Shown piece by piece: positions 1,243 through 21,821 of a stretch of 25,871 bases of DNA. Numbering within the stretch: position 1 is the stretch's first letter; each line of letters opens with the position of its first letter. The stretch is from a virus. The notes beneath the pieces are model-generated. The model had not been told where the DNA came from and did no database searches. It saw nothing but the letters and a program-made list of their open reading frames with translations. The stretch is taken from the IMG/VR virus record IMGVR_UViG_3300033141_003137. One strand, 5' to 3'. The translations under genes and the position numbers were made by a program.

Positions 1243-1261
1243 TACACCGCCCGTCGGTGTA
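1243..1261. promoter_or_regulatory. Perfect inverted repeat TACACCG-cccgt-CGGTGTA between divergent genes (operator/promoter core, class A)
   Basis: Seen directly in the sequence. CGGTGTA at 1255-1261 lies exactly 10 nt before ATG 1272. The mirror half lies 12 nt from the minus ATG at 1230. Confidence 0.6.
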
Positions 1262-1271
1262 TCAACCAACC

Positions 1272-1487
1272 ATGACCTCTGCACGAGAGCTGCTGCGTCT
1301 GTTGACCTTCCGGGTTGTGGCTCCTGAGGGTGAGCGGCACGCGCTGTTGTTGCCGGTAAACGACCGTGAGGGGCTGGACCTGGCTCTACGAGTGGGCGGC
1401 GAGACCCAGCTGATGCACTTGGACGAGGCGGACCTGAACAAGGGGCCGGTGGAGCTGGCGAACGAGATTTTGGGGATGCTGAAGTGA
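1272..1487 (+). CDS. hypothetical small protein (71 aa)
   Basis: ORF MTSARELLRLLTFRVVAPEGERHALLLPV... with a class A motif 10 nt upstream. Confidence 0.5.
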   Translation: MTSARELLRLLTFRVVAPEGERHALLLPVNDREGLDLALRVGGETQLMHLDEADLNKGPVELANEILGMLK

Positions 1488-1523
1488 CGGACCTCATAGC
1501 TGCCAGGGCAGCCATTCGGCGAT

Positions 1524-2012
1524 GTGACGGTCTTTGCACAGACGAGCGTTTCGGCCACGGACGAGTACCCCATCCAGGAGTACGAGGACTACAGCTGGAA
1601 GTTCAAGGCGGGTGCTCGAACGCGACGTGACGCGTTTCGGGGTGTTTTGGCCGAGGTTGAGGCCAAGGTGCCGACCTGGGAGAAGCAGCTAGACCAAGAC
1701 TTGGTGTTTGCGACGCGCGTGGGGGGCCGTGTACGAGCTTTGAAGCCTGAGATGTACTGGCGGCCGGAGGGCATCAAAGTGGCCTACGAGACCAATGAGG
1801 ACGTGTCAGCGGCCATGCGGAAGGCTGAGGTTTCCATCGCCGTTGGCGATGTCTTCGACATCGTGAGTCACAAGCCTGGCAAGCTCTTGGTGCGGGCTCC
1901 CTGCGGTGACGACTTCTGGGTCTACCGGTGGAAGTTCTACAGCTGTCTGACGACGAACACTCCTGGTGAGCGGATCCCTAACCCTCACTACGAGTTCTTG
2001 GAGGTGCTGTGA
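1524..2012 (+). CDS. hypothetical protein (GTG start called by ORF track)
   Basis: 162-aa ORF with coding-like composition (W/Y/F/K content, high GC3). Its stop is followed immediately by the next gene's start (TGATG junction at 2010-2014). Confidence 0.45.
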   Translation: MTVFAQTSVSATDEYPIQEYEDYSWKFKAGARTRRDAFRGVLAEVEAKVPTWEKQLDQDLVFATRVGGRVRALKPEMYWRPEGIKVAYETNEDVSAAMRKAEVSIAVGDVFDIVSHKPGKLLVRAPCGDDFWVYRWKFYSCLTTNTPGERIPNPHYEFLEVL

Positions 2013-2317
2013 TGTGGGGCCTGACGCCGATACCGAAGAAGTGGACCATCTTCTTGGGCGGGTTGTTCGTGCTGGGACTGATTGCTGTCGTGGTGGGGCT
2101 GGTGTTGGTAGTCGTTTGGTCGGGGCCTCAATCGGTGGAGCACTGGAAGCAGGCGGACTCCTACGAACGAGACACGGTTATCGTGTTGCTCATCTTCATG
2201 AGCTGGATGACGAGGTCAAAGACGGAGTGCAAGTGCGGATCACAGAGGTTGAGGGGCCACACACCGTGGCCCCAGCTCCAGGAATGCAGACGGGGTACGG
2301 CTTCTGCTTGGACATGA
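2012..2317 (+). CDS. small membrane protein
   Basis: Hydrophobic stretch IFLGGLFVLGLIAVVVGLVLVVVW plus a second hydrophobic segment. ATG at 2012 overlaps the upstream stop. Confidence 0.45.
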   Translation: MWGLTPIPKKWTIFLGGLFVLGLIAVVVGLVLVVVWSGPQSVEHWKQADSYERDTVIVLLIFMSWMTRSKTECKCGSQRLRGHTPWPQLQECRRGTASAWT

Positions 2318-2460
2318 CGTCGGCGATGGGCTGTCCTGGGGTCTACGGCGGGTACGTTCGAGGTCCTAACCTGAGCTGTGAAAGTATAGGGTTTTGGACC
2401 TGCACGGGCCTGTTCCGGGCGGACTACGCCTGGGGCTACTGGCGAGTTGTAAGTCACTAG
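2314..2460 (+). CDS. small Cys/aromatic-rich protein (48 aa), translationally coupled via ATGA at 2314-2317
   Basis: MTSAMGCPGVYGGYVRGPNLSCESIGFWTCTGLFRADYAWGYWRVVSH. ATG 2314 overlaps the TGA of the previous gene. High GC3. Confidence 0.3.
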   Translation: MTSAMGCPGVYGGYVRGPNLSCESIGFWTCTGLFRADYAWGYWRVVSH

Positions 2461-19850: not shown

Positions 19851-19895
19851 TTACCTCGGTGTTCGAAGCGACCCTAATTCGGGCCGCCCTCTGAC

Positions 19896-19953
19896 CTACA
19901 CCGGCACGACGCCTCGGAGACCAACTTTCTGACAGCCGGTGTATTCAACAGGG
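19896..19953. promoter_or_regulatory. Divergent control region between the MVP-like gene and 19954: TACACCGG ... 32 nt ... CCGGTGTA, then N10 to ATG 19954
   Basis: Seen directly. The minus side has GAGGT immediately before the MVP ATG, with a leader of about 45 nt. Confidence 0.55.
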
Positions 19954-20385
19954 ATGCTGGACCTCACCAACACCTACGAGCAGCTCTACGAGCAGTGCGC
20001 TGAGACCCTGGGGATAGCCCCCGTCGTGATCATGCGGCATGGGACAGGGACCTTCTTCGTCTTCATCTCGGAGTTCGTCGGGGCTCCTATGTACAAGGGG
20101 TCAAGCCCCGACGGGTTCCTCCAGGCGTTCGCTCAAGCGACGGAAGAAGTTGCCCAGAAGCATATCTCAGAGGCCACTCGGAAGAGTTGGGAGGTCGAGC
20201 CCTTCCAGGCGTTCGGGGAATGTCATGTGGACATGACTCAGATCCGGGCCATCGAGCGAGGGGATTATGACCAGGAGCGGGGAGACTGGCGGGCCATCCT
20301 GGTGTTGGCCGGCGGGGATCGCATATCCGTCTCGCTGTTCGTCCAAGAGGCTCTCGTCGCCCTCAACAAGAAGGGGCTGGCCTGA
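19954..20385 (+). CDS. hypothetical protein (144 aa)
   Basis: MLDLTNTYEQLYEQCAETLGIAPVVIMRHGTGTFFVF... Confidence 0.5.
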   Translation: MLDLTNTYEQLYEQCAETLGIAPVVIMRHGTGTFFVFISEFVGAPMYKGSSPDGFLQAFAQATEEVAQKHISEATRKSWEVEPFQAFGECHVDMTQIRAIERGDYDQERGDWRAILVLAGGDRISVSLFVQEALVALNKKGLA

Positions 20386-20966
20386 TGAGCATCGAGCTGG
20401 GGATCGGGCTTGTTATCACACTCGCTCTTTTCGTCCTGTGGGCACACAGGATGCAGAAGGATGAGGACAAGCAGAACAAAAATCGTCTCGACGCCAAGCT
20501 CAAGACCATCGAGCTGGAGAAGCTCATCCGCGATGAGCGGCATCGAGCTGAGAAGGCTGAGCACGAGTTACGAATGGGAAACAGCCCTGCCAGTGAGCTG
20601 ATCAGAACCCTCAACCAGTTCGACGCTCCCCCAACGGTCTACCTCAACGGTCAGCTCTTGGCCCCAGCGCTTGATTACACCCACGGTGAGGACGGCTTCC
20701 GGTTCATCTTCAACCTGAAGGTCCGGGATGTCCTTCAGGTGCATTCCCTCGATGAGCGCACGGTCTCGATTCTCGACCGACCCGTTCACGTAGGGGATGT
20801 GGTTGCCATCACACCCACGGGGGCAATCGACGAAGAGGCCAGCCTGGAGCAGCTCCGGGCAGCCGAGCAACGACTCATAGCCGACCACCCTCCGGATGAG
20901 CCTGAGCCCAAGCAGACTTCTCGGTACGATATCATCGCCCGAGATGATGACGAGGAAAGCCTCTAG
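20385..20966 (+). CDS. membrane-anchored coiled-coil protein
   Basis: MSIELGIGLVITLALFVLWA TM helix, then a charged helical region. ATGA overlap at 20385. Confidence 0.5.
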   Translation: MSIELGIGLVITLALFVLWAHRMQKDEDKQNKNRLDAKLKTIELEKLIRDERHRAEKAEHELRMGNSPASELIRTLNQFDAPPTVYLNGQLLAPALDYTHGEDGFRFIFNLKVRDVLQVHSLDERTVSILDRPVHVGDVVAITPTGAIDEEASLEQLRAAEQRLIADHPPDEPEPKQTSRYDIIARDDDEESL

Positions 20967-21041
20967 GAGCCTCTCTACGGACCTGAGGGCCTCCTAGGTG
21001 TGCTAGGGCGTTCGGGGCGGCAACGGGCCTCTGAGGGGCCT

Positions 21042-21821
21042 TCAGGGCGTCACAAAGAGGCTCAGACCAGCAGGCAAGACCACTCGATGTCGAGGGTGCT
21101 TGAGGGGCTGACGATGAGGTGCAGGAAGTCCTGGACTCGCTCGCCGCACTCGGGGGCTCGAAGGATGGCTCGATCCACTCGGATGGTCTTGTCGGGCTGG
21201 CTGGAGCGTGACCTTCATCCGGCTGTTCCAACAGAACTCGACCGGCAGCGGTTCGCTGACGGGCTCGTCCCTATCGTAGAGCTGGATGGTGGCGCCCTTG
21301 GTCTTCTCGCCCATCACCCGGTCGGGCAATGGCAGGAAGGTGACGCCTATGAGCTGGAGGAAGGTCCGGCGTTGCATACCCCCAGCATACACCGGGGCTA
21401 CCTGGCGGAGACGCCGTTGATGCTCTGGAGCAGACCCGTCGGGCCTGTTCCGCTTCCAGATCTTGAAGGCGTTGTACTTGTTGGGCTTCCACGAGCCGTC
21501 CACAGGCATCAACGTGATGGTCTCGGAGTTGTACTTCTTGCTCCTGGCTCGGCGTCCGACCAGCCAGTCGTGAGGGCTACCGTCGGTCATTTCGCTGGTC
21601 CCCATCACACTCTTCATGGCCACAGCGATCTTCTGCTTGGGCCGAAGGGAGTCGAACAGAGCGACCAGCTTCTCGGAGCTGCCCGCAGGGGTAGCGACAC
21701 GATCAGCCAGGTCCCGTAGGTCTGAGGCGAGCTTCGCTCGGCTCGGCTCAGCGCTCTGGCTGTAGGCCAAGAGGTCTTGGAGGTCTGCTTGGAGGTCTTG
21801 CGGGCTGGCGATTTTCCTCAT
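21042..21821 (-). CDS. hypothetical protein with the shared KIASPQ(D/E)LQA N-terminal module; 3' extent uncertain
   Basis: The N-terminal 45 aa are paralogous to 11721..12158. Codon usage degrades in the last 60 or so codons. An internal class A N10 start lies at 21377. Confidence 0.45.
   Translation of the reverse strand: MRKIASPQDLQADLQDLLAYSQSAEPSRAKLASDLRDLADRVATPAGSSEKLVALFDSLRPKQKIAVAMKSVMGTSEMTDGSPHDWLVGRRARSKKYNSETITLMPVDGSWKPNKYNAFKIWKRNRPDGSAPEHQRRLRQVAPVYAGGMQRRTFLQLIGVTFLPLPDRVMGEKTKGATIQLYDRDEPVSEPLPVEFCWNSRMKVTLQPARQDHPSGSSHPSSPRVRRASPGLPAPHRQPLKHPRHRVVLPAGLSLFVTP

Follow-up and report, generated by a model that had tools for sequence, protein, structure and literature searches.

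Phage-specific promoter words and leaderless phage messenger RNAs (mRNAs) are both well known, and the finding presented here is not conceptually new. In Thermus phage Lalka27a, the late promoters have a TAGGGT -10 element placed 6 nt from the start site, and most transcripts start at the A or G of the initiator codon. Moreover, opposed promoters fill the divergent intergenic regions of this phage, and a phage factor altering the specificity of the polymerase was inferred by the authors. The promoters of the Thermus phages phiYS40 and Lalka27a are the closest described parallel to the element examined here, the heptamer CGGTGTA (hereafter class A), found in the IMG/VR virus record IMGVR_UViG_3300033141_003137, whose whole stretch of 25,871 nt is referred to as the window. 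As in those phages, class A would be a phage-specific -10 element without a -35 partner, with TA located 10 nt before the start codon and with paired opposed copies in divergent regions. However, the Thermus elements keep the TANNNT pattern, with T at -7, and are read by the host sigma-A RNA polymerase, while class A lacks T-7 and carries its information in the CGGTG upstream of TA. CGGTGTA is proposed here, with a probability of about 0.72, to be the core of a lineage-specific promoter giving mostly leaderless mRNAs in an uncultivated, high-GC, jumbo-phage-like element.

Four other known systems share part of these features. T4-type late promoters have TATAAATA at -10 and are read by gp55 with gp33 and gp45, giving leadered mRNAs. 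Like class A, whose logo is confined to positions -18 to -9, they consist of a single element of ~8 bp without a -35 partner that is dispersed before many genes, but the class A sequence is unrelated and its register lies 5 nt further upstream. Words resembling TATAAATA (ATATTTA, TATAAA) were absent from the window and from two of its high-GC relatives, L001 and L004, while gp55, gp33 and gp45 were not seen in the fetched flanks of the relatives, although no dedicated test was made for them. The leaderless promoters of Actinobacteria and Deinococcus-Thermus carry TANNNT 6-7 nt from an A/G-TG start and have in common with class A the TA-N10-ATG geometry, with both ATG and GTG at +1. Nevertheless, these bacterial promoters are generic housekeeping elements with little information beyond TA and T, in contrast to a stringent 7-9-mer found in one mobile-element lineage. 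On the other hand, the promoters of the multisubunit RNA polymerases of the jumbo phages phiKZ and AR9 (phiKZ late TATG; AR9 late AACA-N6-TA/G; AT-rich early motifs) are short, over-represented words, recognized by aligning the upstream regions of genes and read by phage polymerases, as class A might be, and their conserved core includes the start site, while that of class A stops 10 nt short of the inferred start. In phiKZ and AR9, 5' untranslated regions (UTRs) measure 26-491 nt, and leaderless transcripts were not detected in phiKZ. Finally, the start-associated sequence (SAS) of Cluster K mycobacteriophages is a 13-bp element, GGGATAGGAGCCC, lying immediately upstream of some gene starts. 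It resembles class A in being asymmetric, gene-oriented, upstream of a subset of start codons and limited to one phage cluster, but it holds the Shine-Dalgarno (SD) core AGGAG at the position of a ribosome-binding site and was proposed to act in translation, while class A has no SD and lies 10 nt from the start.

Abundance, spacing and position of the motif

A total of 18 copies of CGGTGTA were counted on both strands of the window (Table 1), compared with 0.88 ± 0.95 in dinucleotide-preserving shuffles, none of the 100 shuffles reaching that number. The arrangement CGGTGTA-N10-RTG was observed 11 times, while 0.04 cases were expected, in agreement with a preliminary description of this DNA in which at least 11 cases had been claimed and whose motif coordinates were all correct on recheck. 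The distance from the 18 copies to the downstream ATG or GTG showed a single peak at 10 nt (11/18), with a binomial P-value of ~4e-13 at a background ATG/GTG frequency of 0.030. The other spacings were represented by one site each at 9, 11 and 12 nt, which are the near-misses previously listed at 15990, 4397 and 1230, respectively; all three exist, and ATG 1230 belongs to a real HNH gene. None of the 21 one-mismatch variants was associated with start codons in the window. Furthermore, an unbiased positional scan of 6-mers upstream of long open reading frames (ORFs) placed CGGTGT at -17 and GGTGTA at -16 at the top in the window and in L004, and GGTGTA at -16 within the top six in L001.

The motif avoided the inside of genes. 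Our gene models cover 85% of the window, and 13 of the 18 copies fell in the remaining, intergenic 15%; another four lay within the final 30 nt or less of a co-oriented upstream gene, and only one was deep in coding sequence (5443-5449, antisense), which is about chance level and opposite to the similar frequency inside coding sequence that, according to the preliminary description, would have refuted it. The copies followed the direction of the local genes in 17/18 cases in the window, 10/12 in L001 and 11/11 in L004. In most co-directional gene blocks, the first gene was headed by class A or by a second element, class B, that is described further below, the block-head starts with neither of them being 11721, 12862 and ~9450. 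The genes inside the blocks either overlapped their predecessor (ATGA, GTGA) or had a GGAGG-type SD 4-8 nt from the start, while SD sequences were absent from most class A spacers. Sigma-70-type promoters (-35 TTGACA and -10 TATAAT with a 16-18-nt spacer) gave 0-1 matches in the window, no more than in the shuffles. Two strong intrinsic terminators were found, both on the minus strand (17122-17089 and 15187-15156), each directly followed by a motif copy (17081 and 15140, respectively); the first of them lies downstream of the gene for a major-vault-protein-like (MVP-like) protein, and the copy after it is a TGGTGTA variant.

Of the five divergent junctions, four had class A on both sides. The inverted and everted pairs had been correctly described, the inverted ones having inner gaps of 5, 12 and 33 nt; in the everted arrangement, a TGGTGTA at 7484-7490 (+) lies 45 nt before ATG 7536. 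The 41-bp divergent region 1231-1271 contains two motifs, a 5-nt gap and two spacers, and nothing else, and both flanking genes must be transcribed from that region.

Motif anatomy

A sequence logo was constructed from 23 sites with N10 spacing in three genomes. The consensus obtained was yCGGTGTA(t/g)g, from -18 to -9, that is, (C/T)-18 C-17 G-16 G-15 T-14 G-13 T-12 A-11 (T/G)-10 G-9, where TA at -12/-11 was invariant (23/23). No information was found between -50 and -19, hence there is no -35 element. Positions -8/-7 were 65-70% A/T in a genome of 61% GC. Moreover, C occupied -1 in 13/23 sites (P = 0.01) and a pyrimidine in 17/23, while +1 was A in 18 and G in five. T-12/A-11 followed by 10 nt and the start codon reproduces the -10 geometry of the sigma-70 family with the start site on the first base of the initiator, and spacings of 9-12 nt correspond to discriminators of 5-8 nt, lengths within which start sites are normally selected.

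Conservation and lineage limits

Related contigs were gathered through the homologues of the MVP-like protein encoded in the window. Three of them have a similarly high GC content: L096 (84% MVP identity, 61.8% GC), L001 (74%, 63.6% GC), which is syntenic with the window at 8-25.8 kb, and L004 (61%, 62.1% GC), which is part of a 349-kb contig. Several other loci, with 58-72% MVP identity, have 41-50% GC and include IMG/VR viral contigs of up to 318 kb. CGGTGTA was enriched in L001 (12 copies vs. 1.08 expected) and L004 (11 vs. 1.24), and was also present in L096. The spacing to called starts in these relatives was again 10 nt, occasionally 9 or 11 nt.

The alignments of orthologous intergenic regions between the window and L001 appeared as islands, in which the motif or motifs and the start region were kept while the flanks and the sequence in between had diverged. 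In the inverted pair 16000-16025, the gap is longer in L001 (13 nt) than in the window (12 nt), with the distance of each copy to its start codon unchanged. L001 has an extra gene after the terminator of a small-RNA candidate (see below), and the next motif had moved along with its own gene. Furthermore, the gene 11370-11669 is at the head of a unit in the window and has the motif there, while its L001 orthologue lies inside an operon and has none. The comparison is limited at one place by an assembly gap, a run of N in L001 at ~17075-17085, just upstream of the PARG gene.

A degenerate form of class A in the lower-GC relatives was considered (GTGTA-N10-ATG, and a spurious CGGCAA word), and it was not present. 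The motif was also considered as a feature of host genomes and rejected, as 1.35 Mb of bacterial MVP loci (mostly Myxococcota) had 1.2 copies per 10 kb, compared with 7 per 10 kb here; those loci showed no N10-specific peak, their peaks stemming from the conserved MVP coding sequence.

Units with the motif and no start codon at +11

Three units carry class A at a distance from the start codon or without one. The first is the MVP-like gene, where the motif lies ~45-55 nt before the start in the window, L096, L001 and L004, leaving a leader of about 35-45 nt; the start is ATG 19850 or 19844, and the database version begins two codons later. In this leader (19851-19896 (-) in the window, 3761-3813 in L096 and 9947-10000 in L001), a hairpin begins 9-12 nt past the motif, and its stems show compensatory changes in the three genomes (GCGGCCC/GGGTCGC, GACGGCCC/GGGTCGTC and CGGTCCC/GGGACCG). 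The hairpin is followed by a conserved GAGGT SD and an invariant AACACCGAGGTAAATGAAGATG start region.

The second is the small-RNA candidate, which has no ORF. A 69-nt form of it folds at -32.4 kcal/mol (z = -3.25), and both stems are found with compensatory changes in the L001 counterpart at 14957-15028 (+). The tandem motifs that precede it were both kept in L001 (14908 and 14941), while the intervening sequence diverged. A search of Rfam returned no family in the window, including this candidate, and scanning viral contigs with the pattern of the small-RNA promoter gave 0 matches.

The third is the stretch 8313-8485 (+), ~170 nt without a coding signature that ends at ATG 8486, a real start backed by an orthologous gene. 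It contains a GGAGGaaccgaCCTCC hairpin, a T-run near 8465 and a decayed proximal motif copy, GATGTA-N9-ATG, at ~8471-8485, while the L001 orthologue of the 8486 gene has TGGTGTA-N10-ATG directly in front. At the position of 8313-8485, L001 has a paralogue in tandem with the downstream Zn-ribbon gene, and the stretch may be a decayed paralogue whose present role is that of a leader or a non-coding RNA. The 49-aa ORF from GTG 8323 was compared with the L001 paralogue as its possible remnant, and no significant similarity was found. Since the motif stands before a leadered gene and before a non-coding RNA, it is taken as a transcription signal and not as a translation signal.

Start codons and transcription units

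The motif helps to fix start codons and the limits of transcription units, as at 21377, 11669, 3929, 1230 and 17065 and, through class B, at 22716, and it draws attention to non-coding transcripts, for instance the small RNA at 15146-15213. Of the start-codon corrections put forward in the preliminary description, most held: 21377 and 11669 were backed by L001 orthologues (for 21377, with the motif at 8699 and the gene called at 8716), and 3929 by a frame switch in GC content at third codon positions (GC3) together with a 55-aa ORF with a CxxC motif (3929-4096). In contrast, GTG 8323 was not retained as a start, as it showed no coding GC3 and an Arg-rich 49-aa translation without homologue, and the orthologue starts at ATG 8486. 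At 4385-4400 (+), ATG 4385 overlaps the upstream stop codon (ATGA, 4385-4388) and is an alternative to ATG 4397; both the coupled start (ATG 4385, polycistronic) and the leaderless start (ATG 4397) may be used.

Interpretation and alternatives

In the mechanism proposed, class A would work as an extended -10-like region without a -35 partner, in which T-12/A-11 would be the first two bases of the -10 hexamer and RNA polymerase would begin ~11 nt past the motif. In most units, the start site would coincide with the first base (A or G) of the start codon, yielding a leaderless mRNA, and the spacing would be fixed at 10 nt (range 9-12 nt) because a 5'-terminal start codon is required. In a few units, the same promoter would give a leadered mRNA (the MVP-like gene and the 8486 gene) or a small non-coding RNA. 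As reader, a dedicated factor is proposed, which would be a sigma encoded or modified by the phage, a host holoenzyme in modified form or an RNA polymerase of the phage, while the ordinary housekeeping holoenzyme is unlikely in this role. A -10-like element for leaderless mRNAs with a dedicated factor had already been suggested in the preliminary description and is the best supported reading, given the geometry, the strand, the position at unit heads, the missing SD, the C-1/A+1 preference and the conservation in three genomes.

Several observations weigh against this promoter. T at -7 is normally the second most conserved base of the -10 hexamer, but here it was not conserved (A in 11, C in one, G in six and T in five of the 23 sites), so the sites do not follow TANNNT; moreover, the conserved GGTG abuts TA without the 1-nt gap usual in extended -10 (TGn) promoters. 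With T-7 missing and the specificity upstream of TA, class A is not filed as a canonical sigma-A -10 element. Some spacers have GAGG-like purine runs 3-5 nt before ATG (3601, 3929, 15123). The position of the transcription start and the identity of the reader are what we infer from these patterns. Searches of the window with Pfam (~40 ORFs), PHROGs (10 ORFs) and PDB sequences (six ORFs) gave no sigma factor, RNA polymerase subunit or helix-turn-helix (HTH) or other DNA-binding regulator, and none was seen in the flanks fetched for the relatives. Furthermore, the relatives of 41-50% GC with the same MVP gene showed no CGGTGTA enrichment, and the conservation is thus restricted to one sub-lineage. 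Finally, TATG occurs in 13/23 sites, and a fixed leader of ~9 nt from a phiKZ-like TATG start is possible.

The latter would imply a promoter containing or abutting the start site, of the TATG type read by the phiKZ non-virion RNA polymerase (nvRNAP) with G as +1, which is the strongest alternative and is considered improbable. The tetranucleotide, which holds the start site in phiKZ, appears here as GTATG, with GTAGG in 7/23 sites and G at -9 in 15/23; several spacers are purine-rich (GAGGGG, AGAGGA, AAGAGG), and the relatives are jumbo phages, which often have their own polymerases. However, a 9-nt leader gives no reason for an exact spacing to the start codon, SD sequences are missing from most spacers, and the strongest conservation lies upstream of TATG and not within it. 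The preference for C at -1 and purine at +1 also speaks against a start inside the motif, as do the conserved 5' hairpins of the leadered units, which start 9-12 nt past the motif and not at it, and the phiKZ and AR9 transcripts have the leaders of other lengths mentioned above, none of those detected in phiKZ being leaderless.

A start-associated translation signal at the RNA level, recruiting ribosomes through a phage or host factor or through ribosomal RNA (rRNA), is very unlikely. The fixed spacing to the start codon and the precedent of the 13-bp SAS repeat would agree with it, but class A has no SD core, unlike SAS, and it was also found 45-55 nt from the MVP-like start, 165 nt ahead of the 8486 gene and in front of an RNA without ORF. 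In addition, motif-containing mRNAs from the 41-bp divergent region would need starts inside the opposite gene, and the window offered no other promoter candidates. CGGUGU is complementary to ACACCG, which we take to belong to the 1400 region of 16S rRNA, and this is regarded as a curiosity only. Positions 1244-1255 (ACACCGCCCGTC, a motif copy plus gap) are likewise identical to what is presumably the universal 12-mer of the 16S rRNA 1400 region; since the motif also works in other settings, the identity was considered coincidental.

Still less credence is given to CGGTGTA as the half-site of an operator for a dimeric regulator that would repress or activate genes by binding over start regions, a palindromic role raised in the preliminary description that could not be upheld. 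The inverted pairs at 1243-1261, 16000-16025 and 19897-19943 and the everted pair at 7484-7499 would suit such an operator, but 10 or more sites stand alone and are asymmetric, and a tandem direct pair is also present (15224, 15257). The gaps of the inverted pairs vary from pair to pair and even between orthologues (12 to 13 nt), a freedom that a dimer would not have, while the distance from each copy to its own start codon stays within 9-12 nt, which fits two independent promoters; the search for HTH or regulator genes in the window was negative. Least likely of all, an RNA-processing signal, in which an endoribonuclease would cut ~10 nt past CGGUGUA and free leaderless mRNAs and the small RNA, would have a precedent in MazF cleavage, which generates leaderless mRNAs, and would accommodate the motifs lying between or inside co-oriented genes without a terminator (3584, 3912, 4379, 10529), but promoters are required at divergent junctions, where nothing other than the motifs is conserved, the order of terminator and then motif (15187-15156/15140 and 17122-17089/17081) fits re-initiation, and the C-1/R+1 bias and the A/T-rich -8/-7 are promoter-like.

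Taking class A as a promoter for leaderless mRNAs, a broader proposal can be made tentatively, at somewhat less than even odds: the lineage would express most of its accessory genes leaderless from at least two unrelated stringent promoter classes, and class A would be read by a phage sigma-like factor or polymerase whose recognition, with specificity upstream of TA and no pocket base at T-7, would differ from all characterized pairs of sigma and promoter, maybe a diverged counterpart of the T4 gp55 system, of which the low-GC relatives with ATATTTA-N5-ATG would be users. In the literature, CGGTGTA was found in primers only, and nothing relevant was found on leaderless expression in huge phages. 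Giant phages carrying MVP appear to be heavily reliant on leaderless translation, which constrains their possible hosts or the way in which they take over translation. A stringent 9-nt promoter without -35 or T-7 could further serve as bait for its reader and as a search key for binning fragments of this lineage in metagenomes.

Location of the features

Table 1. Position and strand of the class A copies, class B sites and associated features in the window, and of the ATATTTA arrangement in lower-GC relatives
Feature	Position	Strand	Downstream start or gene	Remarks
Class A	1243-1249	-	12 nt before ATG 1230	HNH endonuclease gene 358-1230, 290 aa
Class A	1255-1261	+	10 nt before ATG 1272 (gene 1272-1487)	Back to back with 1243-1249
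Class A	3584-3590	+	10 nt before ATG 3601 (gene 3601-3921)	
Class A	3912-3918	+	10 nt before ATG 3929	Inside the final codons of 3601-3921
Class A	4379-4385	+	11 nt before ATG 4397	
Exact motif copy	5443-5449	-	No start codon	Antisense within gene 5101-5859; probably a chance copy
Class A	7493-7499	-	10 nt before ATG 7482 (gene 7036-7482)	
Class A	8306-8312	+	~165 nt non-coding before ATG 8486	
Class A	10529-10535	-	10 nt before ATG 10518 (gene 10249-10518)	L001 orthologue 19726, spacing 9 nt
Class A	11680-11686	-	10 nt before GTG 11669 (gene 11370-11669)	
Class A	15134-15140	-	10 nt before ATG 15123	Operon 15123 to 13337, including PARG; conserved at L001 15475
Class A	15224-15230	-	No ORF downstream	Precedes the small-RNA candidate
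Class A, tandem	15257-15263	-		33 nt upstream of 15224-15230
Class A	16000-16006	-	9 nt before ATG 15990 (gene 15235-15990)	
Class A	16019-16025	+	10 nt before ATG 16036 (gene 16036-16284)	TGGTGTA in L001, same spacing
Variant TGGTGTA	17075-17081	-	9 nt before ATG 17065 (gene 16550-17065)	
Class A	19897-19903	-	~46-52 nt before MVP-like start	Conserved in L096, L001 and L004
Class A	19937-19943	+	10 nt before ATG 19954 (gene 19954-20385)	L001 9900-9906 (-), GTG at 10 nt
Class A	21388-21394	-	10 nt before ATG 21377	
Small-RNA candidate	15146-15213	-	No ORF	~65 nt; two hairpins, the second an intrinsic terminator with T tail
MVP-like gene	17139-19850	-		903 aa; MVP shoulder and Vault_3 domains
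Class B	2465-2490	+		
Class B	11307-11331	-		
Class B	22724-22748	-		
Class B	23616-23640	-		
Class B	23999-24023	-		
Class B	24284-24308	-		
Class B	24789-24813	-		
Class B	25716-25740	-		
ATATTTA-N5-ATG	L005 10704, 11643, 13308			
ATATTTA-N5-ATG	L006 5371			
ATATTTA-N5-ATG	L009 5105, 8076			
ATATTTA-N5-ATG	L013 15830, 21217			
ATATTTA-N5-ATG	L015 3968, 22386			

Gene content and origin of the window

The window coincides in full with a JGI metagenome contig (P0001, 100% identity). Its GC content was 61%, with the usual GC3 signature in genes, and when its entire sequence was searched for near-identical relatives in collections of phages and plasmids, no match was obtained. The products recognized were the 903-aa MVP-like protein, a microbial PARG, an anti-restriction-type protein (ArdC-N/M78) and two HNH-type nucleases, while ~35 window ORFs had no family and ~85% of the proteins in the window genome had no annotation. 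The nuclease genes lie behind class B (2498-3580 (+)) and class A (358-1230 (-)). A match to the C-terminal domain of the RNA polymerase alpha subunit (alpha-CTD) at the C-terminus of the 2498-3580 product was discarded, this region being probably the helix-hairpin-helix DNA-binding tail of an HNH/endonuclease VII-type nuclease and not a transcription protein. No transfer RNA (tRNA) was detected in the window by ARAGORN.

The window element most likely represents part of a jumbo phage, its 26 kb belonging to a whole genome of probably ~350 kb. Close homologues of the MVP-like protein were present in many large viral contigs, and viral MVPs have already been reported in a preprint; against 'huge phages' of 462-735 kb, the MVP-like protein showed 37% identity. 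The cellular MVP homologues had at most 48% identity, and almost all of them came from Myxococcota (41-48% in Myxococcota chromosomes). For PARG, the best phage matches were Bacillus phage G and Lak megaphages. Homologues of T4 Gp23 and gp19 were found on two of the lower-GC MVP contigs, and a T4-like affiliation of the high-GC lineage would be indirect, with the shared MVP gene as its sole basis.

Other promoter-like classes

A second element, class B, was defined as CTCAACAA-N12/13-CTCGTAGT-N6-ATG, and this bipartite pattern was found nine times in the window compared with 0.11 expected. Among 22 class B sites in four genomes, -1 was C in 19 and T in three, and a hairpin carried the -35-like word in its loop. 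The AAC-N16-CGT spacing is presumably similar to that of promoters for extracytoplasmic function (ECF) sigma factors, and no membership is claimed. In L004, CGTAGT was kept, with GGTTCATTT upstream instead. The ArdC gene cluster at 23-25.8 kb has class B at its head, and the copy at 22724 suggests ATG 22716, and not 22851, as the gene start. A putative third class, made of TTCTTGTGG-like words upstream of some starts ('class C'), was rejected, as these were terminator tails or hairpin loops and formed no promoter class.

The lower-GC relatives (41-48% GC) had neither class A nor class B, and presented ATATTTA-N5-ATG instead, with a total of 13 cases. There, ATATTTA lies at -12 to -6 from the start codon, which places a word resembling the T4 late promoter (TATAAATA) in a leaderless register. 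This pattern suggests that leaderless expression may be common to the wider MVP-carrying group, with the promoter word varying by lineage.

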